Below are positions 1 to 55,579 of a stretch of 55,579 bases of DNA, in pieces (the stretch's first letter is position 1; each line of letters starts with the position of its first letter). Location of the stretch: positions 1 to 55,579 of the IMG/VR virus record IMGVR_UViG_3300043256_000267; one strand, given 5' to 3'. The DNA is from a virus. Taxonomy: Duplodnaviria; Caudoviricetes. A program made the position numbers and the translations under genes. The notes below the pieces were generated by a model. It was given only the letters and a program-made list of their open reading frames with translations. It was not told the DNA's origin and made no database searches.

Positions 1-111
1 CGTCTTATCGTAAACGGTCCCATCCCGCAGTTCTCCAATCCCTCCAAATGGTGGGCCGGGCCGCTTACAAGGCTGCACCCAGCCCACCCGCGGGAGGAAC
101 CTTCAATCAGT
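1..111. repeat. Exact copy of 54876..54986 (circular overlap, flank of an allelic bubble)
   Basis: Base-by-base identity up to the first mismatch at 112/54987. Confidence 0.95.
51..87 (-). terminator. GC-rich hairpin downstream of the HNH gene (also present in the end copy)
   Basis: GTGGGCTGGG...CCCGGCCCAC stem on the minus strand; only a short U tract follows. Confidence 0.4.
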
Positions 112-573
112 TTTCAAGTAGGGCGGTAAGTGAAGTTCGCCGTCCAAATCGCGCCTGGTCAAGTAACAGTGGCAATTTGCGCAAACCACGTCGCACTTCT
201 CTGCCTCTGCAAGCGCCCGAGAGAGACAACTACCTAACGCCATTACTGCTGCCTTCTTCTCTAGCGGATCGCGGTGGTGAAACTCCAAGCAGATTGGGTC
301 GTTCATACCACAATATTTGCAACCGTAATCCGCCTTGAGTTGCCATAGAACCCTTCGGTTCTCCACATACACAGCAGCGCGTTTAGTCCGGTTTACAGGG
401 AGCGCCGCGCGTTGCCGGTTGTCCTTTCTAACCCGTTCCCGTACATCAGAACGAGAGCGGTACTTCTTCATCTTGACGCGGACAGCATCCTTGTGCCGGT
501 AGTACCACTCCCTTGATTGTCGGCGGCGCGCTTCCTTGCGCTCCGCGTCAGTGCGATACTTCTTCAACCCCAT
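103..573 (-). CDS. HNH endonuclease, allele A
   Basis: GCKYCG...LEFHHRDP...EKCDVVCANCH motif; basic N-terminus; ATG 573 with GGAGG-like RBS. Confidence 0.85.
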   Translation of the reverse strand: MGLKKYRTDAERKEARRRQSREWYYRHKDAVRVKMKKYRSRSDVRERVRKDNRQRAALPVNRTKRAAVYVENRRVLWQLKADYGCKYCGMNDPICLEFHHRDPLEKKAAVMALGSCLSRALAEAEKCDVVCANCHCYLTRRDLDGELHLPPYLKTD

Positions 574-613
574 CCTCACCCTCCCGTACAATTCCAGGGT
601 TAGTTAAGCCGCT

Positions 614-2152
614 TTACGTTCCATCAAATCCCGCAATTTCCGCGATGTTGTGCAGAAGCAGGAAGTTTGGCGTTCGTGGCATCATCACGCTCTTGCGCTC
701 GGCCGGGGACTGGAGCAAGTTGCTGAATTTCCCACCGTGATCGTAGCGCGTAAAGATGCTATCAAACGCGCTGGACCCGCTAGACGCAAGGAACTGCATT
801 TCATCACCAATTCGCTGATCCGTTCTCGTACCCGGAATCGGAGGCGGAACAAACCGGTCAATATCAAACACGCCGGCCTGGAACCGCCCCTTCTCCATGT
901 ACGTGCTGGTATGAATGTCGATCTTCCGGCCACCATACCGGTAGTTGAACACGTCCCAACCAGCCTCAACCTCGACTGTACGTCCGTTCCGCTCGTACCG
1001 GAACCGACCCGGGTAAGTTCCCTTGTTGTCGGTAGGCCCTTCAGTACCGCCCTGAACGAGACTATCAATGTTGTCGATGAACCCAAGCAGCACGCCATTC
1101 GTCGTGACAGCCTTCGGCAGGTCACTATCGCGGAAGCTCTCTTTGAAGTAACCAACGTTCCGATTCAAGAGGCTCTCCGTGAGCGGGGCCGCCGACAAGT
1201 CACGCTTGATCGACTTGTACTCGCTGTGGTTGTTGACGTTTATACCGAAGAACGTCGTAATGTCCGTCCCATCGGCCACCCACGCGGCCATCGTACCGGG
1301 CGTAAACCCAACGCTGTCCTTGAGCACAATGATGTCGAGATCGCCACCCGCACCAGCATACGTGATCCCACCACCAAGTACAGTTGTGGTCTGCAACTCG
1401 CCGCCGTCAATTCGTCGCAGCCTGACCACCTGCGCCTCGTAGTCTACGTTGTCCACGTACACGAGGAAGTTGGCATTGCGCTTCACGGTCCCGGCTGCGT
1501 TGAACAGGTCAACCAACTGGCCCTTCTCCAGCCGGTGAATCCGACCAGTCGCCAGGGACGAACTCGCACCGGAAATATCAACGTTGATCGCGCCGGTATC
1601 CGCAGACACATCCGTTACAGTAGCGCTCGTATTCCCAATCGCAACCAGCGCTACAGTCGACGGCGCAGTCGAATAGAACGTACCAAGCTCTTGCTGCAAC
1701 GCGAGCTTGGCTAGCCCTCGCACGTAGAACGGCATAACAGCGCCAATACTGGAGTTTAGCCGATCGGTTTGGAGAATGTCGCGCGGCACGAATAGGTTCA
1801 GCTTGTGCTTTACCAGTTGTACCTCAGACGTGAGAAACGTCGGCGCACTTACCTCATCGAAACCCGGCCAGGTTTCTGGCGTTCCAAACGCAGAAAAACT
1901 CCACGTCGAGTCATTGACCATGTCGCTGCCCAGCGGAGACCCAAAACTTCCACCGCCGGCCAAACCCAGACCCCAAACCTTTTTCACTTTGTAGTCGCGC
2001 CCAATTCCCTCGTTGCGCACGACATGCGTCCACGTGCGCCGTGCCATCGCGTACACCGGGTCCTTGATTACTCCTCTTTCATAGATTTGCGGCAAAAGCT
2101 CCTCACGCAAGGTCTGCGACAAGGTGCTTTCCATAATCGTTGTGGTGGCCAT
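614..2152 (-). CDS. Probable major capsid protein
   Basis: 512 aa; follows terminase-portal-scaffold in order; strong promoter upstream; fold not verified. Confidence 0.7.
   Translation of the reverse strand: MATTTIMESTLSQTLREELLPQIYERGVIKDPVYAMARRTWTHVVRNEGIGRDYKVKKVWGLGLAGGGSFGSPLGSDMVNDSTWSFSAFGTPETWPGFDEVSAPTFLTSEVQLVKHKLNLFVPRDILQTDRLNSSIGAVMPFYVRGLAKLALQQELGTFYSTAPSTVALVAIGNTSATVTDVSADTGAINVDISGASSSLATGRIHRLEKGQLVDLFNAAGTVKRNANFLVYVDNVDYEAQVVRLRRIDGGELQTTTVLGGGITYAGAGGDLDIIVLKDSVGFTPGTMAAWVADGTDITTFFGINVNNHSEYKSIKRDLSAAPLTESLLNRNVGYFKESFRDSDLPKAVTTNGVLLGFIDNIDSLVQGGTEGPTDNKGTYPGRFRYERNGRTVEVEAGWDVFNYRYGGRKIDIHTSTYMEKGRFQAGVFDIDRFVPPPIPGTRTDQRIGDEMQFLASSGSSAFDSIFTRYDHGGKFSNLLQSPAERKSVMMPRTPNFLLLHNIAEIAGFDGT
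648..774. repeat. Exact 127-bp copy of 55453..55579
   Basis: Direct comparison with the window end. Confidence 0.95.
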
Positions 2153-2214
2153 TCTCCTACTCGACCGCAGCTAGCCTGCGAGTCATGGTTCAAACTGTCT
2201 TGTTTCCGTCCAGG

Positions 2215-3150
2215 CTACGCGCCTGGCGTGCTACTCTGTTCCCGCTCCATCAGCGCTTGGTTGTAGCGCATCTTCTCAAGTAGATACTCGTCTTGTTCGT
2301 GCTCAGGCGCAAACCCGGGTACCCGTTCCGGCGCCTTCAACTCGCGGTTCATTTGATGGTCCGTTTGCGATCCCGGTCCCATTCCCGGCCGCGCGGGGCG
2401 CTCAAAAAACGGTGCCAGCCTTGCCTTCTCCGCAGCCACCGCTTGCTTAGCCGCTTGACCCCAGTTGTAGTCAAACCGGTCACCGCGCTCGTCCACAAAC
2501 CGTTGCAGCCGATCCCGAATGATCGACTTCACCGAATCCTGCGCCTTTGGACTCGCCTGCTTCATATTATAGGACAATTCGTCGTCCGAGTCAAGCGCCT
2601 GCCCGATAGCTTGCTCAACCATGTGGCTATGAACAGCCCCGATCGCCTTTTGAGACCCCACATCCAATCGCGCGTACCCTATCGGTTCATCGTCATCAGC
2701 GCGTGCGCCCCGCTTAGGAGACGTAGACGGCTCGTCAAGGTCCACATCGCCGTCATCATCGTCGGTATCTTTCAACTCAGATTCGATTGCAGCGATAAGC
2801 GTATCCAGCTCTCCCGCCGGCAAGTTCTTCACCTGCTCAAACAACACCGACGCATCCACGGTATCTGGAGCCGGTGCCGCGACCGAACGCTCTGGTGGGC
2901 CATTGGTGGGGACCGGTTGCCCGCGATCTTGATCGTCCTGACCTGCCGGCTTGGTCTGCGTGCCGGGTGCAGTCTTGTCAGGCGGCGCAACGGTCCCCGC
3001 GGGAATGTCCACGTCAGCCGCGCGGCCAGTGTTACGCTGAACCGGCGCCGGCGTCAGGTCTGGCGCGCTGCCCTGCGGCTGCGCTGCGGTTTGCGCGTCT
3101 GCGTTCCCCGCGTCGGCTGTTTGCGTTTGTGTGTTGACTTCGGTCGGCAT
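2215..3150 (-). CDS. Probable capsid scaffolding protein
   Basis: Acidic, low-complexity N-terminus and helical C-terminus; directly upstream of the capsid gene. Confidence 0.6.
   Translation of the reverse strand: MPTEVNTQTQTADAGNADAQTAAQPQGSAPDLTPAPVQRNTGRAADVDIPAGTVAPPDKTAPGTQTKPAGQDDQDRGQPVPTNGPPERSVAAPAPDTVDASVLFEQVKNLPAGELDTLIAAIESELKDTDDDDGDVDLDEPSTSPKRGARADDDEPIGYARLDVGSQKAIGAVHSHMVEQAIGQALDSDDELSYNMKQASPKAQDSVKSIIRDRLQRFVDERGDRFDYNWGQAAKQAVAAEKARLAPFFERPARPGMGPGSQTDHQMNRELKAPERVPGFAPEHEQDEYLLEKMRYNQALMEREQSSTPGA
2566..2594 (-). promoter_or_regulatory. Sigma70-type promoter inside the scaffold gene, pointing at the capsid gene
   Basis: TTGACT-17-TATAAT. Confidence 0.7.
2900..2919. 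repeat. 20-bp dispersed motif, copy 1 (CCATTGGTGGGGACCGGTTG on +)
   Basis: Exact; translated as QPVPTNG in the scaffold. Confidence 0.95.
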
Positions 3151-3153
3151 CTG

Positions 3154-3846
3154 CTAATTCCCTCCCTCAATTTTGATCTTTTCCACATTCACAATCGGCT
3201 GGACATTCTGTGACAGCGCAAGAAGCGCTGTGTCCACCGGCACACCCAACTCGCTTGCGGCGAATTTTGCCGCGCTAACTATGCCTGCACATGACGCCTT
3301 CATGGCACATGACATTCGGCTATGCGGGTCCTCGTGTTCAATCCTTTGAAACCTCGCGCAGCGAATGCTCACGCCGCACCCTTCCAAGTCATCCACTACT
3401 GTGTTGCGCAGCTCCTCTTCCATAGTTTGACTTTGTTCAGCGATGGTCTGGAATTCGTTGTCGGATAGTATCCGCCGCACACATGCTTCTACAACTGCTG
3501 CCACATGGACAGCGGGGTCCTCGGATGACGCAAGAAATGTTCCCAAGTCCGCAATATCGTAGATGACAATGGCATCTGCGCTTAACGCTACACCGTCCCA
3601 CGTCAGTCCAGTAACTCGCTCAGTCGATACGACATTCCTGAGTGCATGTTCCTTAACAATCGTTTGGCAAGATGTACAAATTCTCCACCCGATTCCTAAC
3701 CCTGGTCCGGGCTGTCCGAATGTGTACCTGACGGCGACTTCCCCTGGTCTTACGACGGCCCACTTCAACGGGAACAGCCAAACCACTGGGGTGACCAGCG
3801 CGTTCATTACCAATTCTAGACATCGCGCAAGGAACTCAAGCATCAA
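3154..3846 (-). CDS. SPFH/band-7 domain protein
   Basis: N-terminal hydrophobic segment, VVRPGEVAVRYTFG, and the typical D-G-V...Y-I-D...GV-I pattern. Confidence 0.75.
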   Translation of the reverse strand: MMLEFLARCLELVMNALVTPVVWLFPLKWAVVRPGEVAVRYTFGQPGPGLGIGWRICTSCQTIVKEHALRNVVSTERVTGLTWDGVALSADAIVIYDIADLGTFLASSEDPAVHVAAVVEACVRRILSDNEFQTIAEQSQTMEEELRNTVVDDLEGCGVSIRCARFQRIEHEDPHSRMSCAMKASCAGIVSAAKFAASELGVPVDTALLALSQNVQPIVNVEKIKIEGGN

Positions 3847-6017
3847 ACGAAGCCCCCTACTGGAACTTGCACGCCACCTGGCGGCTGGGCCGGAGGTGCC
3901 ACAGCGCTGGCGGCAAGCGATTGGCCCTGTCGCTGTTGCTCAGCCGCAAGCCGCTGCTCGATTTCCGGTAACGCTTCCGTGGCCGCGTCTTCTGGTAGCG
4001 GCAACCCGGCGGGGTACACTCCAGTCATCCGTTCAAGAGCCTCTTTCCACAGTACAAATTCCTGCTGCACCTCTTCGGATGCCAGGCCAAACTCGATCTT
4101 GGACATGAACCGCTTCAACGCGCGCAGGTGCATTTTCGGGTCCTGCACGTGCTCGTCAAACTCAACCGGTCCAGGTTCCTTACCATCATTGAACAGCAAG
4201 ATGATCTGCCAAATGGCCTTGCGCCAAGTTTCGTATAGGTCTTTTGGCCCGCCTGGTACGTCTAGGTTTTCCTCAAACACCGCGAGCCAGTAGTTGATGT
4301 AGGACTCTTCCGGTGTCGCGCCAAGCAAGCCCGCTGCGTGGTGCTCAGCCAGTTCGCGCTTGCGAACGTCGGGATCGGCGGGTACGCGGTCCTTTACATC
4401 TACCTTGACTTCCCACGGCTGCGGTATCGGATTCTGCGCCAGTTCGAGCGATCCGGTTTCCGGGTTGAACACGACACCGGCCAGGTTCTCGTCAATAGTC
4501 GCTAGCTTGATCGTTTCGCCGCCTTGCAAGTTTTCACGTGCCGCCTGTAGTATGCGGGAGTAAATTGCGGCCATGCTGTCCGCCAAGTTTGCAGACGGCA
4601 GTCCCAGTCCAATGTTCCCCGTGTTAAACAGGAACCCGTGACCCGCAGCTCCGATGTCCCGCCCCGCCGCTTGACCGTCATAGAATGGCCCCTGCCCCGC
4701 CAGGCTGTCGGATATGTCCTTCAAGAACACACCAAAGTTGACAGGCAGTAGCCCAATGTTCTTCGGCGCGAGGTTGACTGGCTGTGCATTGGCCGCCAGC
4801 GGATCAATTGTGTACTTGTCCATGCGCGGACGCGGGCCGGGCTGGTTGTGCTTTTTCACGTCGATGTTCATGCCGCTACTAACGTATGTAGTACCAAACA
4901 TGTCCATTTCGCGAATGTTACGAGCTACCGACGCAATGACCTTCTCGAATTGGTCGTTGGCTGGAATGAGCGGCGCCACAAATCCACGCGAGAAGGCCGC
5001 TCCAGTATCCGTGTACCGTATCGCCTGCAACGGGCACACGATCCTGCGGCCGACTGACTCGTAGTCGTCCTGGTAGATGATCTTGCGACCAATCTTCAAG
5101 ATGTACCTCGCGGTGTACATCGCGTCGTCCATGTACGGATAGATTTCCTCCATCGGCACGTAGTAGCGGCCTGCCACGTCAATGTCGCGATGCTCATCAG
5201 CCTTGCCGCTACCCAGTGGCACTCCCACGTATGCGCGCCCACCACCGATCCTCGGATCGGCCGGCGTCAGTACGTTGCCGTCTTGCAAGTACCGGCCATA
5301 CGCACCGCTCGTTGTCTCGGTAAGCAGCGAGTGTCCCGGTGGCTGATTTCCCCACCCAACACGCATCCCCAGCAAGTCGGACTCGACATCGTACAACGTG
5401 TCCAAGTTGATGTCCCACCGGGTTTGCACGTAGTTGCGTACCCACTCGTAGGGCATCCACCGCTTCCGCGCGATACCCTGTATGGACTCACAACCCTCCG
5501 CAAACGCCGGTAGAAACCGAAGTTGCCTCGGCGGCACAACCTCAATGTGATCGGGGTGCATCGGGTCCGGCATTTCGTGGTGCGCAACGCCGACGATTCC
5601 ATACTTCACGAACGGCACTATGATCGCTGTCTTGAGCCGATCGAGGTTGAGCCCGGCTACGCGCGCGTTTAGAACCGCGTTTGCGATTGCGGCGTTACGC
5701 ATATCACCAAGCGATTCGCCGCGCCGTCCTACCTTCGGCGATATGTCCGCGCGCAGCCACCGCCCCACTTCCACGAGGTAGCGGCGCACAATGTCTTCGT
5801 AGCGAAAAAGCACGTCCCCGCGCAAGTGCTCAAAGCCAATTGCCACACGGCCAGAACTCCGGTCAAGCGTCGTAAATTTCCTCGCGCCTCTAAGGTAGCC
5901 ATCGAGGATTCGCCAACCACCCAGATTGAGCCCCATTTCAGATTCGGCCGCGGTCAACTCCATGTCCAGGGATTCGGCCAGATGATCTTCGTCTTCGGGT
6001 AAATGGTACCTAGACAT
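3843..6017 (-). CDS. Probable portal protein
   Basis: 724 aa; downstream of terminase; P/Q-rich C-terminal tail typical of P22-like portals. Confidence 0.75.
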   Translation of the reverse strand: MSRYHLPEDEDHLAESLDMELTAAESEMGLNLGGWRILDGYLRGARKFTTLDRSSGRVAIGFEHLRGDVLFRYEDIVRRYLVEVGRWLRADISPKVGRRGESLGDMRNAAIANAVLNARVAGLNLDRLKTAIIVPFVKYGIVGVAHHEMPDPMHPDHIEVVPPRQLRFLPAFAEGCESIQGIARKRWMPYEWVRNYVQTRWDINLDTLYDVESDLLGMRVGWGNQPPGHSLLTETTSGAYGRYLQDGNVLTPADPRIGGGRAYVGVPLGSGKADEHRDIDVAGRYYVPMEEIYPYMDDAMYTARYILKIGRKIIYQDDYESVGRRIVCPLQAIRYTDTGAAFSRGFVAPLIPANDQFEKVIASVARNIREMDMFGTTYVSSGMNIDVKKHNQPGPRPRMDKYTIDPLAANAQPVNLAPKNIGLLPVNFGVFLKDISDSLAGQGPFYDGQAAGRDIGAAGHGFLFNTGNIGLGLPSANLADSMAAIYSRILQAARENLQGGETIKLATIDENLAGVVFNPETGSLELAQNPIPQPWEVKVDVKDRVPADPDVRKRELAEHHAAGLLGATPEESYINYWLAVFEENLDVPGGPKDLYETWRKAIWQIILLFNDGKEPGPVEFDEHVQDPKMHLRALKRFMSKIEFGLASEEVQQEFVLWKEALERMTGVYPAGLPLPEDAATEALPEIEQRLAAEQQRQGQSLAASAVAPPAQPPGGVQVPVGGFV

Positions 6018-6019
6018 AG

Positions 6020-6382
6020 CTACAGATTCTCGTAAGTAGACTCGCCGGGCTCAGTCCAAGCTGTATTCGGCGGCTCTTCCGACGCACGCAACTCCCGCTG
6101 CCGCGCATACGTACCGAATGCCTGAGCCAGATCGGCGTTACCCATTTGAACGAGCAGAAGCTCCTGCATCCGATCGACGATAGGTAGCCAGTCCTGCACG
6201 GCGCTGCCAGCGTGAGGTGGGCCATTGGTGGGGACCGGTTGATTCTTATGCGCTTGCAACTCAGCCACCTCGCGGCGAAGCAATGCAACGTCTTCGCGCA
6301 AGAATGAGATGAACTGCGTCAACCGGTTCACCGCCGAATCCACGTGCTTCTTGTCGTCCCGCTTGCGATTCCAAAATGCCAT
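6020..6382 (-). CDS. Hypothetical protein (coiled coil)
   Basis: GGAGG RBS; abuts the portal start. Confidence 0.7.
   Translation of the reverse strand: MAFWNRKRDDKKHVDSAVNRLTQFISFLREDVALLRREVAELQAHKNQPVPTNGPPHAGSAVQDWLPIVDRMQELLLVQMGNADLAQAFGTYARQRELRASEEPPNTAWTEPGESTYENL
6222..6241. repeat. 20-bp motif, copy 2
   Basis: Exact; identity with copy 1 extends to 26 bp (6216..6241 vs 2894..2919). Confidence 0.95.
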
Positions 6383-10789: not shown

Positions 10790-11391
10790 ACAACCTCCGA
10801 CGTTGAATGGCGATAGTCAGGAGAACGGCCGTAGTTGGAACGCATTGGAGGTCGCGCGATGGCGCCGGGGGCTTGTTTTTCGGCACGCGCGGACTCGGCT
10901 GCCGTGCGCTTGCGGTCCCGGTACCGCTGCATGGCCGTGTCGATCTCCATGCCGATACCCAGCCCAGAGAGCAGCCCTTGAAGCGTACCGGACACGCTGG
11001 ACGGCTGAACGAACGCAGCGCCTTTGAGGAGCGCAGAGGAAATGGCCTGTTTGCGCTCGGCTTCGGCGGACGCAGTCGGACTGAGCTTGGTCAAGTCCAC
11101 AGAAACGTCGGGCGGTGTCGGACCGGAAATCTCCTGCCGTGTGCGGACGCGGCCACGGGGGGCTTGGCTGGATGGCCTTCCTGTAATGCCCAACGGCGAG
11201 ACGGTACCCCTCCGCGGCTTCCGCTTGCTGCTAGCTGGTTTTGACTTTGGTTTGCGTGCCCGTGTCAGTTGTGGGTCTAACACCTCGCGCGCTGTTGCTC
11301 TCCGAGACGGTCGCGCGAACTCGAACTCGAACTTCCGGCTGGATTTAGATTCGCGCGCTGGAAACGTCTTGTCTAACGGAATCATCGGCAT
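10786..11391 (-). CDS. Hypothetical basic protein, possibly virion-associated
   Basis: TAATG coupling to the HNH gene; Gly-rich hydrophobic segment. Confidence 0.6.
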   Translation of the reverse strand: MPMIPLDKTFPARESKSSRKFEFEFARPSRRATAREVLDPQLTRARKPKSKPASSKRKPRRGTVSPLGITGRPSSQAPRGRVRTRQEISGPTPPDVSVDLTKLSPTASAEAERKQAISSALLKGAAFVQPSSVSGTLQGLLSGLGIGMEIDTAMQRYRDRKRTAAESARAEKQAPGAIARPPMRSNYGRSPDYRHSTSEVV

Positions 11392-11876
11392 TATAGCTGC
11401 TCACTTTCCAGCAACGCGCCCCAGTTCTTACGGTGTTCACGAGCGTGGCAATTAGCACACAAAACGGTACACTTTTCAAGTTCTTTTTCAACTTCCGGCC
11501 ACGCACGCGAAGTCATAGTCGGCAACTTCGATACCTTGTCCTTTGGATCACGATGGTGAAAGTCTAAAACTAACGTGTCCCTCTCTCCACATGTTACGCA
11601 TCCCGAGTCCTTCTTGATCCCCCAAAGGATCAACTGGCGTTCAACGTGTTTCTTGGCCATTCGCCGAACACGCTTGTCACGCACGCCGGGGCGCTCGATG
11701 TACGCCTTTGCCTTCGCAATGATCTCGTCGCGGTTCTTCAAGTAGTACCTCCGCCGCCGCGCGCGAATCCTACGTTTGTTCTCTGCTTGGTACTTTTTCG
11801 CATACGAAAGCCTCTTGTCCCGGTTTTTGCGGTTGTACTCTCGGTGGTACGCTTTTTGTTCCTCTGTCAACGACAT
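11391..11876 (-). CDS. HNH endonuclease (same family as 103..573)
   Basis: GCVTCGE...LDFHHRDP...EKCTVLCANCH. Confidence 0.85.
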   Translation of the reverse strand: MSLTEEQKAYHREYNRKNRDKRLSYAKKYQAENKRRIRARRRRYYLKNRDEIIAKAKAYIERPGVRDKRVRRMAKKHVERQLILWGIKKDSGCVTCGERDTLVLDFHHRDPKDKVSKLPTMTSRAWPEVEKELEKCTVLCANCHAREHRKNWGALLESEQL

Positions 11877-21401: not shown

Positions 21402-21632
21402 GTGAAGATTGAGAGCGCAAAAACGCAGGGTGAAGGACAGTCGTTGGATAGCTTTAACAATGGCGATTGTATCCGCCTTGTTGACAACGGCCTCAGCGAG
21501 TTGTTCTTAGACAGTGTATACATTGTGGGCACCTCCGGAGAAGGCCGACTGGCGATTAATCTTCTCGATGGGTGTCACCGACGTGAAGGTGGATTCGTGC
21601 TTGAACCAAATGCGAAAGTTGTAACTGGATGA
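21402..21632 (+). CDS. Small hypothetical protein
   Basis: GTG with GGGAG RBS; loosely similar to 33235..33444 (AINLLDG vs GINLENG). Confidence 0.6.
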   Translation: MKIESAKTQGEGQSLDSFNNGDCIRLVDNGLSELFLDSVYIVGTSGEGRLAINLLDGCHRREGGFVLEPNAKVVTG

Positions 21633-24355
21633 ACTTTGCTCCAGGTAGTCACGTTTTGGAAGAACCGCTTGCAGAGGGATACTCGCGCCGCGTGGTGCCT
21701 ACGTTTCCGCTGCACGTCAACGGACGGCAAACTGCCCTGCTGGTGCTTGGAGAGGCGCCCGGCCGGCAAGAAGACGAGACGGGCGAGCCGTTCGTTGGGT
21801 GGTCGGGCCAGTTGCTCCGCACTGCGTACATTGACTATTGGAAGCTACAAGATCACGCGGACGTGTTCCTGTCCAACGCAGTTCGGTCTCGCCCACCGGG
21901 CAACCGCACGCCCAAGCCAAAAGAGATCAAGGCGCACGCGGACATGCTTGTCCACGACGTGACCGAATTGCAGTCGGCGTACTCTGAGGTGTTCGTACTG
22001 TGTGCCGGAGCTGTTGCGTGCCAAGCGCTGGGCATGGCCAAAACGCTTACAGCAGCATTTAAGAGCCAAGGCGGCACTCTGCCATTCGCGGCGGGACACG
22101 TGCGCGCGTATGCCACGTTTCACCCTGCGTCTCTCGCAGACCGCGGCAAGAACAAACGGCGCCGTGGGCCTCGCCGCGCACGTACTGACAAGGGACCTGC
22201 ACTGGAGTCACACTTATCACTCTTGCAGCGTGCGCTGTCGGGCCAGGACCCAGTGCAGGAACCCGCTGCCGCTTGCGAATGGCTTACTGCTCCTGGCGTT
22301 ACAGAGATTACGGCATTTGGCACGCCAGACGCTTTGGCGTGTGACACTGAAACTTATGGATGCTTGGGGGGTGGGGAACAATCGCAATTCCAGCCGGACA
22401 AGTCTTTGCACTGGGACAATGTGAATCCCGATCAGGTCTTTGTTAGTGCTGCGCTGGCATGGGTTGGCCGTGGCACGGGTAGGAAGGGTGCTGGCTTTTA
22501 CAACTTGCAAGACCCTGAGCACCGGGCTACGTTTGTTTCGGTACTTCGATGGGTACAAAAACGCGACTGCCTGCTATTGTTCCACAATTGCGCCTTCGAT
22601 GTACCGTTTCTGCGCCGGTTCCTGCCAGCGTGCGCTCGCTACCTGGAGCCGCCGACCAAGCTGGCCGATTTAATGATCGAATCGCACATGGTAGATGACT
22701 TGCGCCCCGAGCGCTCGCTCAAAGCGCTGTCGCCTCTCATGCTCGGCCAGCGTGGACTGTACACTGAAGAGCAACGCACGTTTGACTACACCGGCCCGGA
22801 CGACCCGGATCTTGCACGCTACAACGTGGCCGATGTAGAGCGCACTTTGGAATGCTACTGCCTGTGCCGCGAGGCGTTCCCGCGCATCTACGGCGCGAAC
22901 ACAAACAAGGGTTCGCCATACGCCGACGATTGGTCTTCCAAGGTGCTGCACTTGGTCACGCACATGACCGAAGTTGGCATCCCTATCGACGAGCCCGGTT
23001 TGCGCGCCCTGGATACACGCTTGCGTGTTCGGTTGGAGCGCATCGAACGGCTGGCGCGGGACACTTTAGGTCTCGTGCTCTCGGGTAAAGTAGGCAAGGG
23101 CTCCGACACTTCCAAGCGTGCAGCGGTGTCGGATGCCGCAACGCTGTGCCCGGACAACGTCGCCGCGCAAATCATATTAACCCCAACTGGTAAGTTTCCC
23201 TACGACGAGGTTGCACGCGCGTTGCTCATGCCCGAAATGCAGGGTCGATGGGGTGGTGATGGCACAGTAGAAAACGGCGACCCCCCGCGCCGGGGAGCGT
23301 GGCGTAAGCTGCACGTGTTGGGGCTGCACCAAGGCGTTGCCAAGCTCATCAACACGTATACGGGGCCAATGCTCCGGGGCCGCGTCAAGAAGAAAGCGAC
23401 CAAGGAAACCAAGACAAAGCCAGCACGCGAAGCGGTTATCAATCACGCACCGCGCGTGATCCGCGGGCGCATCTACCCAACGTGGTATCCAGTGGCCCGC
23501 GAGTTTGGGGACACAGGTCAGAGCGGGGGTACCCGGCAGATACGGTTTGCCGCCAAGGACCCTGCCGTTCCGACGTTTCCGCCCTGCATTAAAGACCTGC
23601 TGCAAATTGACATCTGGGCCGACTACTCCGGCATCGAACTGAGGACTGCTGCGCTGATGTCCGGCGACCCGGTGATGATGGCCGAACTGTCGGGCGACGA
23701 TGGCGATCTGCACACTCGCACGGCACGCGTTATCCTTGGGAACAAGTTCGTAGATGACAGGATCAAGATGTACGGCCCGAAGGCGTGGAAAGGTGGCAAG
23801 CACCGCTACGCTGGTAAGCGCACCAATTTCCTCATGCTGTACTTGGGAGGTGCAGACAAGCTGCAAGCTACGCTCCTAGACGCGCTCGGGGAGAACTATC
23901 CAGTGTCTCGGTGTCAGCAGGTCATTACCGATTTTTGGGTTATGTACCCAGGACTGCGTGCTTTTCTTGATGGTGTGATTGACTTCGTCCGGCGCAAGGG
24001 CTATTATGAATTACCGCTGACGGGTCACTCGCGCTTGTTCGATCGGCACAACCCGCCGATCAACGAGTGTGCAAACTTTCCGTTCCAAGCGACTGCGGCA
24101 GCCATCACGATTTGTGCTCAGTACGAGCTGTGGCAACTAGCGCGGTCGGAAGGTGTAGGAATGAACTGTGGCTGTAACATCTATGATGCTGTCGGAATCG
24201 AGTTGCACGCCCGCGAGCGCCGGCTTCACGGAACACAGCGTGCCCGTGCTCTTATTGATCGCGCGCTCCCTCAGCCATCGTACTACAAGGACTTGTGTTC
24301 CCACTTGGGACGAACCTTGCCGCTGGCTTACGAAGTAAAGGAACCAAAGCAATGA
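21629..24355 (+). CDS. polA: Family A DNA polymerase with N-terminal family-4 uracil-DNA-glycosylase-like and 3'-5' exonuclease domains
   Basis: UDG: GEAPG..E...PFVG, TFHPA. Exonuclease: DTET, HNCAFD, YNVAD. Polymerase: DYSGIELR, RYAGKRTNFLMLY, IYDA. Confidence 0.9.
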   Translation: MNFAPGSHVLEEPLAEGYSRRVVPTFPLHVNGRQTALLVLGEAPGRQEDETGEPFVGWSGQLLRTAYIDYWKLQDHADVFLSNAVRSRPPGNRTPKPKEIKAHADMLVHDVTELQSAYSEVFVLCAGAVACQALGMAKTLTAAFKSQGGTLPFAAGHVRAYATFHPASLADRGKNKRRRGPRRARTDKGPALESHLSLLQRALSGQDPVQEPAAACEWLTAPGVTEITAFGTPDALACDTETYGCLGGGEQSQFQPDKSLHWDNVNPDQVFVSAALAWVGRGTGRKGAGFYNLQDPEHRATFVSVLRWVQKRDCLLLFHNCAFDVPFLRRFLPACARYLEPPTKLADLMIESHMVDDLRPERSLKALSPLMLGQRGLYTEEQRTFDYTGPDDPDLARYNVADVERTLECYCLCREAFPRIYGANTNKGSPYADDWSSKVLHLVTHMTEVGIPIDEPGLRALDTRLRVRLERIERLARDTLGLVLSGKVGKGSDTSKRAAVSDAATLCPDNVAAQIILTPTGKFPYDEVARALLMPEMQGRWGGDGTVENGDPPRRGAWRKLHVLGLHQGVAKLINTYTGPMLRGRVKKKATKETKTKPAREAVINHAPRVIRGRIYPTWYPVAREFGDTGQSGGTRQIRFAAKDPAVPTFPPCIKDLLQIDIWADYSGIELRTAALMSGDPVMMAELSGDDGDLHTRTARVILGNKFVDDRIKMYGPKAWKGGKHRYAGKRTNFLMLYLGGADKLQATLLDALGENYPVSRCQQVITDFWVMYPGLRAFLDGVIDFVRRKGYYELPLTGHSRLFDRHNPPINECANFPFQATAAAITICAQYELWQLARSEGVGMNCGCNIYDAVGIELHARERRLHGTQRARALIDRALPQPSYYKDLCSHLGRTLPLAYEVKEPKQ

Positions 24356-52994: not shown

Positions 52995-53195
52995 CTACTC
53001 TCCTGTCGCTGGCGACTCGGCCTTTGCCGTGGGCTCTCCGTCCGCTTGCAGAACCTCCACCTCAACGCGGACGACTCGTTCCCGCCGCCCAACAAGGAAG
53101 CTTACGACCCCCGCGATTGGCTTGATGTATTGACAACCAGCCAGTACAACCACGGCTCCACACGCGATGATCTTCAGTGTTTTTGCTCTTGTCAT
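52995..53195 (-). CDS. Small putative lipoprotein
   Basis: MTRAKTLK, hydrophobic stretch, LAGC lipobox. Confidence 0.6.
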   Translation of the reverse strand: MTRAKTLKIIACGAVVVLAGCQYIKPIAGVVSFLVGRRERVVRVEVEVLQADGEPTAKAESPATGE

Positions 53196-54067
53196 TACCG
53201 CGCTCTCCGCGTTGTTCTGGCCAACGGATAAACGTTCTTGTCCCACCGCCTCCTCGGAGCGGCCGGTTCCCCCAAGACCAGGGAAATACCTTGAATGTCC
53301 TCCTCAGCCGGGTTAGCCGTCCAGAGTACAGTCTCCTCAGTGCCATCCAAGTTCGACCTCCTCATGTCTACGGAAGCAGCCCCGACCCACCTGGCAAAAT
53401 ATAGATGTCCGGCTGCTACATCAATGGTGATAGGAACAAACCCGTCCGTCCCGGTGGTAATCAGGACCTCAGCATTTGATCCATCCAGATCGGCACGTCG
53501 TATACTGGACGCGGTAGGCCAATCAGTCCAGTAAATCTTCCCCCCACTCGGGTCCACGGCTATCCCAAACGACCACGCAGCCGGACTAATAATGTCCCCC
53601 GGGCTGGACCCGTCTAAGTTGGCCTTGGAAATCTTGTCAGTGGCGGGGAGTTGATCCGTCCAGTACATCTTCCCCGCAGCGATGTCCAGTGCTACCCCAT
53701 GTGGACCTATACTGGTTACAAGGTCCTCGGGATTAGACCCGTCGAGGTCGGTCCTGGCAATCTTCTGGTCACTGGCATGGTTGGAGGCGTAGTACATCTT
53801 CCCACCCACCGTATCCAGAGCGATGTCCCGGCAGGCCTCCTGCCCGCTCACCAGTACCTCTGCCCCAGTACCATCCAGGTCACAGCGAGAGACTGCGTCT
53901 ACCACCCCCCACTCGCTGTAGTATATCTTACCCCCGTCATTGTCAACAGCAATAGCCTCTGGGGTATCCAAGCCCCCCTTGACCGTAGTCTTGTTGTTCC
54001 CGTCTGCATCACACTTACGGATAGCATCGAGGATAGTATCCGTCCAGTAAATCGTTGCAACAGCCAT
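53195..54067 (-). CDS. YWTD (LDL-receptor class B) beta-propeller protein
   Basis: Repeats of GIA.D..GGK.YWTD....I.R..LDGS. Confidence 0.85.
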   Translation of the reverse strand: MAVATIYWTDTILDAIRKCDADGNNKTTVKGGLDTPEAIAVDNDGGKIYYSEWGVVDAVSRCDLDGTGAEVLVSGQEACRDIALDTVGGKMYYASNHASDQKIARTDLDGSNPEDLVTSIGPHGVALDIAAGKMYWTDQLPATDKISKANLDGSSPGDIISPAAWSFGIAVDPSGGKIYWTDWPTASSIRRADLDGSNAEVLITTGTDGFVPITIDVAAGHLYFARWVGAASVDMRRSNLDGTEETVLWTANPAEEDIQGISLVLGEPAAPRRRWDKNVYPLARTTRRAR

Positions 54068-54508: not shown

Positions 54509-54898
54509 TTATGTCAAGATCGGAATTGGGCTGCCAGACTTCTTCTGAACCCAATCCTGCACTTCATGGCGCTCTTTCGCCTCTTCCGTCTCGACTTCCC
54601 ACCCGCGGCGCACGGCATTCTCAAACCGCTTCTTGACATCGTTCGCAGTTACACCAACGCGAGACTTTTCAAGTTGCTTGACCAGCGTCCCGGTCGCAAA
54701 CTCCATGTTCGGCCCGAGGTCGTCTACGTCGTTTGCCAGCCCCCGGTCCTTGTTGATCCAGTAGGCCAAAAACCACTGCCGCGTCTCCGTGTTGTACGCC
54801 GTAAACAACGACGGGTCACGTAGCCGGCAGCGTAGGTGACGTACAAAGTCCGTTTCCCGGATTACATGCTCACCGCGTCTTATCGTAAACGGTCCCAT
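54509..54898 (-). CDS. Hypothetical protein downstream of the capsid/HNH locus
   Basis: GGAG RBS; its first codons are also present at 1..23. Confidence 0.7.
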   Translation of the reverse strand: MGPFTIRRGEHVIRETDFVRHLRCRLRDPSLFTAYNTETRQWFLAYWINKDRGLANDVDDLGPNMEFATGTLVKQLEKSRVGVTANDVKKRFENAVRRGWEVETEEAKERHEVQDWVQKKSGSPIPILT

Positions 54899-54977
54899 CC
54901 CGCAGTTCTCCAATCCCTCCAAATGGTGGGCCGGGCCGCTTACAAGGCTGCACCCAGCCCACCCGCGGGAGGAACCT

Positions 54978-55385
54978 TCAATCAGTCTTCAAGTAGGGCG
55001 GCAAGTGAAGCTCACCGTCCAACCCTTTGCGATAAGTGTAGCAATGACAGTTCGCACAAACCACATCGCACTTCTCTGCTTCCCTCAACAGCGCTGGAAG
55101 GTTGCCCATCAACTCCCCAACGCCACAACGTTTCTCCGAAGGGTCACGATGGTGGAATTCCAGGCAGATCGGGTCATTTATACCGCAGTACCTACAACCG
55201 CGGTCTGCCTTGAGTTGCCATACGACCCTCTTGTTTTCTACGTAACGTACTGCATGACGAGCCTTGTTGTACACGCGGTCTCTATCGAGATTCCGTTCTC
55301 GATACCGACGCCGCGTTGCTTGCCTTGCGGTGATCCTTTCTTCTTCCGTGTCGAATCGCCGACAGGCACGCTTCTTCCTCCCCAC
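54978..55385 (-). CDS. HNH endonuclease, allele B
   Basis: Same motifs and C-terminus (LDGELHLPPYLKTD) as allele A; GTG start with GGAG RBS. Confidence 0.85.
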   Translation of the reverse strand: MGRKKRACRRFDTEEERITARQATRRRYRERNLDRDRVYNKARHAVRYVENKRVVWQLKADRGCRYCGINDPICLEFHHRDPSEKRCGVGELMGNLPALLREAEKCDVVCANCHCYTYRKGLDGELHLPPYLKTD

Positions 55386-55418
55386 AACAAGGCTCCTGTA
55401 CAGTCCAACTACGAAGAA

Positions 55419-55579
55419 TCAAGTCCCATCAAATCCCGCTATTTCCGCAATATTGTGCAGAAGCAGGAAGTTTGGCGTTCGTGGCATCATCACGCTCTTG
55501 CGCTCGGCCGGGGACTGGAGCAAGTTGCTGAATTTCCCACCGTGATCGTAGCGCGTAAAGATGCTATCAAACGCGCTGG
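55419..55579 (-). CDS. 3' end of the major capsid gene, allele B (partial)
   Basis: Encodes the same ...HNIAEIAGFDGT* with different codons. Confidence 0.9.
   Translation of the reverse strand, partial: SAFDSIFTRYDHGGKFSNLLQSPAERKSVMMPRTPNFLLLHNIAEIAGFDGT

Follow-up and report, generated by a model that had tools for sequence, protein, structure and literature searches.

Two diverged HNH endonuclease genes as alternative alleles behind the capsid gene of an uncultured phage

IMG/VR record IMGVR_UViG_3300043256_000267 (Duplodnaviria; Caudoviricetes), analysed here over its whole length of 55,579 bp and referred to as the window, carries near each of its ends a gene for a small HNH endonuclease that follows the 3′ end of the major capsid protein gene. 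We propose, with a probability of roughly three in four, that the window represents one circular-mapping genome in which a homing gene is polymorphic within the population, its two versions having been swapped as a cassette of ~0.54 kb together with co-converted margins. Two anciently diverged alleles, A and B, coexist at about 39:61 in one marine sediment sample. Allele A (103..573, minus strand) encodes 156 amino acids from an ATG at 573, its frame staying open upstream of this codon to a TTG at 591. Allele B (54978..55385, minus strand) encodes 135 amino acids from a GTG start. Both genes were assigned by PHROG matches, and each was recovered on its own arm of a second assembly graph.

Alternative alleles in one circular-mapping genome

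Logan contigs (k = 31; contigs, not reads) from four sequencing runs, X1, X2, X3 and X6, were placed on positions 1..6100 of the window. In run X1, 99% of the sampled words were present, and the HNH locus appeared as two arms. The arm with allele A is a 596-nt contig covering 82..677 with 0 differences at a depth of 17.5. The arm with allele B is a 526-nt contig, exactly 70 nt shorter as this allele requires, with a depth of 27.6, and it matches only the flanks and the conserved core of 1..6100. The flank is a single contig of 10,744 nt at a depth of 47.2, with 0 differences over 648..6100. Since the two arm depths sum to 45.1, against 47.2 for the flank, A and B are alternatives and not two loci on each molecule. 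The initial annotation had recognized two diverged HNH alleles in one population, which the X1 arms bear out. The "two copies" of which it also spoke are, as loci, a product of assembly: the depths show alternative alleles that the assembler joined. Runs X2, X3 and X6 gave no cover over 205..612, which is mere lack of cover, apart from two bridging contigs described below.

The alleles differ not only in the HNH gene but also in the end of the capsid gene that precedes it. The second copy of the capsid 3′ end (55419..55579, minus strand) holds the last 52 codons and the stop. Between the A-linked tail (614..647, minus strand) and the B-linked tail (55419..55452), the last 12 codons including the stop are mismatched at 615, 617, 620, 635, 644 and 647. 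All six mismatches are silent (AAC/AAT, ATC/ATT, ATT/ATA, GGA/GGG, ACG/ACT and TAA/TGA), as had been reported at the outset and is confirmed at base level. They are confined to wobble or stop positions and lie no more than 15 nt apart. In the middle of the tail, a stretch of 21 nt (codons −10 to −4) has a single base that separates A from B. For five random changes in 11 sense codons, the probability that all are silent is ~7e-4; the mismatches are therefore old differences filtered by selection rather than errors. Because each arm is unbroken and the mismatches are so closely spaced, the six silent bases are phased with their own HNH allele, so that the proposed linkage of each allele to its own tail holds on a single k = 31 arm in either case. 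No recombinant arms were detected among the X1 contigs. Nor was any other region of tail-like divergence seen over 648..6100: silent single-nucleotide polymorphisms (SNPs) at the density of the tail, which the initial annotation had taken as the sign of ordinary strain divergence if spread throughout the capsid gene, were absent from these contigs, in which sparse SNPs may collapse.

The record is labelled "linear" and has a CheckV completeness of 100. We conclude that it is a closed circular-mapping assembly whose end overlap crosses a polymorphic bubble. Its first 111 nt (1..111 = 54876..54986; 100% identity, a single path in X1) form the shared flank 3′ of the HNH cassette and comprise the last three codons of the HNH frame (103..111), an RNA hairpin (16..101) and 23 nt from the start of the next gene. 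This identity ends at 112/54987, the first mismatch between the ends. The last mismatch is 647/55452, after which 648..774 and 55453..55579 are identical up to the right contig end, exactly 127 nt further on, where the assembly path closed. The identity of these 127 bp, pointed out initially, was confirmed; their length is set by the contig end. The largest k-mer in common metaSPAdes use is 127, and we regard the length of the run as set by the assembler. It is not independent evidence of a sharp boundary because the contig simply ends there; such evidence comes from the k = 31 arms of X1.

The simplest reading is that the assembler circled the graph once and then entered the second arm of the population bubble. 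The unit measures 54,875 bp with allele A and 54,805 bp with allele B. Since the bubble lies inside the overlap, repeat-based end detection missed the closure. Two relatives, G001 and G002, were classed with direct terminal repeats. The ends of the window form no true direct terminal repeat: they differ across 112..647, and the arm depths sum to the flank depth.

Two further observations concern the locus. Over 1..111, the X1 contig is only 258 nt long, with a depth of 35.1 against 47.2 on the other flank, which suggests a further branch point ~147 nt beyond position 1, at roughly 54729 on the circle and inside the next gene. Separately, a silent donor cassette within the genome, in the style of antigenic variation, was considered and rejected: 0 20-mers of the A core or B core occur elsewhere in the window, and an 800-bp query taken from the end found only itself and the opposite end.

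HNH family, divergence and sporadic occupancy

The products of alleles A and B are 51% identical (BLASTP, E 2e-52) and match the same two PHROG HNH families, allele A hitting phrog_3106 at 2.7e-20 and phrog_2255 at 7.3e-19, and allele B phrog_2255 at 3.8e-19 and phrog_3106 at 1.5e-17. In an alignment of 26 sequences, all 7 invariant and all 5 near-invariant family residues are kept in both. These include the catalytic residues H100, N133 and H135 and the two zinc-binding CxxC pairs C85/C88 and C131/C134 (A numbering). The common metal-binding motifs, shared C-terminus and two variable patches of the initial description are present as stated. The AlphaFold2 model of allele A (predicted local distance difference test score, pLDDT, 91) consists of three long basic helices (residues 9–83) followed by a small zinc-finger HNH core. 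The alleles differ most in their basic N-terminal helices, with 26 additional residues in A, and in one patch within the HNH core. Pfam model PF01844 does match two distant homologs (P0045 and P0053), and some distant relatives of A carry the Pfam "Homing endonuclease associated repeat". Both alleles are apparently functional and, judging from their conserved residues, would encode active nucleases.

Each allele also has its own upstream spacer. That of A, between the capsid stop and the HNH start (574..613, minus strand), contains a GGAGG-type ribosome-binding site, that of B (55386..55418, minus strand) has a ribosome-binding site of its own, and the two cannot be aligned with each other. 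A third HNH paralog of the same family (11391..11876, minus strand; 161 amino acids) is 38% identical to allele A and reaches 17.7 bits with the Pfam HNH model, under the cut-off of 21.4.

Over the whole gene, the proportion of synonymous differences (pS) between A and B is 0.87, a saturated value, and that of nonsynonymous differences (pN) is 0.30; within the catalytic core, pN is 0.19 and pS 0.90. These values point to two old alleles, both under purifying selection. Towards the borders of the cassette the divergence is lower: the last 14 HNH codons show 4 silent and 0 replacement differences (pS 0.44), and the capsid tail has a pS of 0.65 with a pN of 0. For comparison, gene-wide capsid pS between the window and its relatives L004, L006, L012 and L005 is 0.46, 0.58, 0.59 and 0.68, and 5 of the 11 conserved tail codons differ between A and B, against 33–55% gene-wide in relatives. 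As the tail lies inside the gene-wide range, a margin co-converted from a related donor suffices to account for it without selection for immunity, and describing the tail as "recoded", as was done initially, overstates its divergence. Between relatives, we found no consistent signal of tail hypervariability, its percentile ranks among 11-codon windows running from 0.15 to 0.97 in six comparisons. Identity drops from 100% to saturated synonymous divergence within a few bases. The margins around the saturated core (34 nt of the capsid gene and 36 nt of the HNH end) look like the edges of one imported tract.

No close relative of either allele turned up in the protein searches. Among 5.8 billion proteins, allele A was the sole relative of allele B, and the best outside match of allele A was the L005 gene, 63% identical over half its length. 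Scans of viral collections yielded only 38–45% relatives of B (3 loci) and none of A.

Capsid-based scans retrieved 2 viral and 8 metagenome loci at 70–93% capsid identity and 20 distant viral loci at 40–47%. The capsid 3′ site could be judged in 8 near-clade genomes; L010, L011 and L013, which end inside the capsid gene, were left out. It was occupied in three (the window, L005 and L008) and precisely empty in the other five (L004, L006, L007, L009 and L012). Runs X6 and X2 each provided one cassette-less bridging contig. None of the 15 distant loci that reach past the capsid gene (of 20) has an HNH gene at this site; in 4 of the 20, it lies instead 1–2 kb upstream (L020 and L021, which are alike, L033 and L036).

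A further sporadic HNH site is located between the 311-aa gene and the capsid start. An HNH gene is present there in L004 (3581..3970), L005 (3682..3978), L007 (1..423, an open frame truncated where the contig begins), L010 (2632..2991) and L011 (2606..2965, an open frame). The site is empty in the window, which has a 62-nt gap at 2153..2214, and in L006, L009 and L012, all three of which have no HNH gene on either side of the capsid gene. The gap of L013 (336 nt) contains no HNH match, and the sequence of L008 does not extend far enough upstream for a decision. HNH copies number 1, 2 and 3 in the three complete genomes, at positions that do not correspond, the window's relatives having 1 and 3.

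Nucleotide alignment shows that the cassette of the window is bounded by the capsid stop codon and a conserved motif, and that the last HNH codons and the stop reuse sequence native to the intergenic region of empty sites. The L005 gene is inserted at the same point as A and B, and that of L008 sits after the motif. The HNH tree places A closest to B (60% over 131 columns) and the downstream gene of L005 next to them; the L008 gene groups with an upstream-site gene (97/97). The locus behaves like a free-standing, sporadically distributed HNH homing-endonuclease gene, with homing as its probable mechanism. The precise empty sites and sporadic occupancy in relatives agree with the initial proposal of a gene of this type.

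The capsid gene and its surroundings

The 512-aa gene that precedes the cassette (614..2152, minus strand) is predicted from its structural model to encode an HK97-fold major capsid protein. Its product matched nothing in Pfam or PHROG, and a PDB sequence search with a 3-sequence profile gave 0 matches. An AlphaFold2 model built on 37 homologs (pLDDT 74; predicted template modelling score 0.75) retrieved 46 PDB matches at E ≤ 0.001 with Foldseek, the top ones being phage capsid proteins, including HK97 (2fte). The capsid identity assumed initially, to which Pfam and PHROG lent no support, is thereby supported by the fold search. The gene order on the minus strand, namely large terminase, portal-size gene, SPFH-domain gene, acidic 311-aa gene and capsid gene, fits a head module. 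Pfam and PHROGs returned nothing for the capsid gene's neighbours.

The right border of the cassette coincides with a conserved RNA hairpin (54891..54976, minus strand, with a copy at 16..101), identified by folding and covariation. Its minimum free energy is −48.4 kcal/mol (z −3.85), and an alignment of 6 sequences contains 22 consensus pairs, of which 3 show compensatory changes. The hairpin follows the capsid stop in empty sites and the HNH stop in occupied ones, and its outer stem involves pairing with the region around the start codon of the following gene, an open reading frame of about 129 amino acids without a known family (54509..54898, minus strand). That gene is conserved: in relatives it immediately follows either the capsid gene or the HNH gene. 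The hairpin may couple its translation to termination of the preceding gene.

Several features of the window stand apart from the HNH locus. The SPFH/Band 7 domain protein (3154..3846, minus strand; E 4e-13), encoded between the portal-size and the acidic scaffold-like genes, is unusual in a head module. Two genes past the HNH locus, in the structural region, a 290-aa product (53195..54067, minus strand) contains LDL-receptor class B (YWTD) repeats. A 908-aa open reading frame (21629..24355, plus strand) encodes a family A DNA polymerase with an N-terminal domain of the uracil-DNA glycosylase superfamily. No tRNA genes were found in the window. Three capsid homologs (P0005, P0008 and P0020; 83–91% identity) come from metagenome bins named Planctomycetota and candidate division BRC1, names that may point to the host or result from faulty binning. 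Species-representative genomes scanned with the capsid alignment contained no relative and gave no host lead.

Origin of the polymorphism and known systems

The polymorphism probably arose through co-infection with a related phage whose corresponding site held a different HNH gene. A break at the locus or close to it, probably a nuclease cut, would have been repaired from the other genome, and this repair would have replaced ~0.54 kb (112..647) as a short recombination or gene-conversion tract directed from that genome into the broken one. The six silent differences in the capsid tail and the four in the HNH end would then be tract margins converted alongside, and the incoming allele may have risen, or may still be rising, to intermediate frequency. 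We favour a nuclease cut as the start because free-standing homing genes act in this way in T4-like phages (PMC2988022).

A number of points weigh against this interpretation or narrow it. X1 is the probable source sample of the window; its contigs come from a separate assembler but presumably from identical reads, and they do not amount to a second sample. Isolated SNP bubbles are collapsed when contigs are built, so that sparse differences may exist, and an otherwise clonal background means here that no comparably diverged region was seen. The assembly model accounts only in part for the left overlap, which at 111 nt is 16 short of 127. Pfam HNH model PF01844 matches neither A nor B, even at E 10. 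Foldseek with the HNH model gave 0 PDB matches at E ≤ 0.001; the best weak rows were HNH nucleases (Cap5 and the Gme HNH protein 4h9d, E 0.17–0.9). In a wide VIA structure search, nothing but coiled coils resembling the N-terminal helices came back (Z 5.6 or lower), and structure searches with this predicted model say nothing on the fold of the core. The grouping of A with B in the HNH tree is weakly supported (79/94), and the donor lineage was not found in any collection searched (viral or protein). Finally, the silent SNPs phased with the cassette, six in the tail and four in the HNH end, are equally expected from general recombination; that a nuclease cut rather than general recombination triggered the exchange is suggested by analogy.

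Among the alternatives, the reciprocal homing conflict put forward by the initial annotation survives best, and we consider it improbable. It holds that each HNH enzyme cuts the capsid tail linked to the other allele, that the silent tail changes are selected immunity marks and that both alleles are maintained in this way. The diverged tract does reach 34 nt into the capsid gene in perfect phase, with no recombinant arm detected; both predicted enzymes appear intact and constrained; both alleles stand at intermediate frequency; and the N-terminal helices, with the 26 additional residues of A, or the core patch could alter DNA specificity. Yet the silent divergence of the tail is no higher than the neutral gene-wide divergence between relatives, and its central 21 nt hold one mismatch only. 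Every change lies at a wobble or stop position, and changes there tend to be tolerated by homing enzymes with targets in coding DNA. Moreover, A and B share a common insertion point, and a target spanning the empty junction would already be disrupted in both. Mutual cleavage with silent-site immunity is thus compatible with the data without being called for by them, and we give it only a small share of the probability. A precedent is offered by I-HmuI and I-HmuII, which are described in PMC3428280 as cutting both intron-containing and intronless targets.

It is less probable still that the HNH gene serves the phage, for example as a terminase packaging cofactor or a weapon against competitors, with A and B as functional variants. 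At least one HNH gene of the family is present in 3 of 3 complete genomes, both alleles appear to be under purifying selection, and an intron endonuclease that serves phage competition has been published (PMC11620839). On the other side, the complete genomes have no HNH position in common, L006, L009 and L012 lack an HNH gene on both sides of the capsid gene, and the large terminase gene is ~6.3 kb away and does not adjoin the locus. The "Homing endonuclease associated repeat" of distant relatives of A also speaks against a role of this kind.

We give little credence to the possibility that two strains differ genome-wide, the HNH region being merely the most diverged part and the rest collapsed by the assembler. 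Assemblers and Logan contigs do collapse simple SNP bubbles, and the 258-nt X1 contig at a depth of 35.1 hints at a further branch. However, a region as diverged as the tail (6 differences in 34 nt) would split contigs wherever it occurred. The 10,744-nt contig instead runs unbroken at a depth of 47.2 with 0 differences over 648..6100, the original assembly was likewise one 54.8-kb path, and the switch from 100% identity to a pS of 0.87 takes place within a few bases. It is scarcely credible that every genome is a linear molecule with A at one end and B at the other in non-identical terminal repeats: the deposited contig is linear and holds both, but phage terminal repeats are copied from one template and are hence identical, the arm depths add up to the flank depth without doubling of the shared flanks, and the contig ends exactly 127 nt after the last mismatch.

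Under the preferred reading of a homing-gene polymorphism on one circular-mapping genome, the locus is a field example of homing endonuclease genes shaping phage genomes, with two old alleles at one site on one background and a tract bounded to the base; most published cases compare separate isolates. It also illustrates that a "linear" contig can be a closed genome whose end overlap crosses a polymorphic bubble, and that depth should be consulted before variant copies of a gene at contig ends are interpreted as a duplication. Should cross-cleavage occur, A and B would be a natural pair for following the co-evolution of nuclease specificity and target immunity.

HK97 gp74 is reportedly an HNH packaging cofactor of the terminase. 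As in phages of that type, the gene described here is a small HNH gene in the structural region of a phage with an HK97-fold capsid; in contrast to gp74, it is not beside the terminase gene, its position is not conserved, and its site is empty in most relatives. The gene also resembles SegB, SegF, SegG and MobE of T4-like phages. There, as here, a small nuclease gene occupies an intergenic gap beside a conserved essential gene and occurs sporadically among relatives; flanking sequence is carried along there and probably here too. The T4-like genes are credited with intronless homing and marker exclusion in PMC2988022, PMC2790892 and PMC2330249. The present, putative homing gene differs in its uncultured, unrelated lineage, its capsid-gene neighbour and its unusual long-helix N-terminus.

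Replacement of one nuclease gene by another at a single locus is also documented. In T4 relatives, SegH and Hef replace mobC and mobE, and nrdB is cut by both MobE and Hef, according to PMC2988022. Those replacements bring different nuclease families to one locus, whereas A and B are homologous alleles, 51% identical. In ICP1-like and other phages, homing endonuclease genes are found preferentially next to essential genes, those for capsid proteins among them, and at boundaries of genetic exchange; one locus may hold distinct HNH genes in different isolates (PMC10448857). The HNH genes of Skunavirus form clusters according to where they are inserted, and they exhibit marker exclusion (PMC12724721). 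These comparisons were made between isolates; here, two alleles of one gene form a polymorphism on one background in a metagenome.

A further parallel is provided by the intron endonucleases I-HmuI and I-HmuII of the Bacillus phages SPO1 and SP82, likewise two diverged HNH enzymes with the same insertion point in related genomes, just as A and B share both insertion borders. Goodrich-Blair and Shub reportedly described in 1996 that the SPO1 and SP82 enzymes compete at one site. Both enzymes cut targets that are already occupied (PMC3428280). I-HmuI and I-HmuII are intron-encoded within a polymerase gene and reside in separate phages; alleles A and B are free-standing, lie behind a capsid gene and segregate within one sample. 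Mutual or one-way cleavage between A and B, with the silent tail changes as allele-specific immunity marks, is improbable in our view but would make them the free-standing equivalent of the SPO1/SP82 competition, present as a standing polymorphism.

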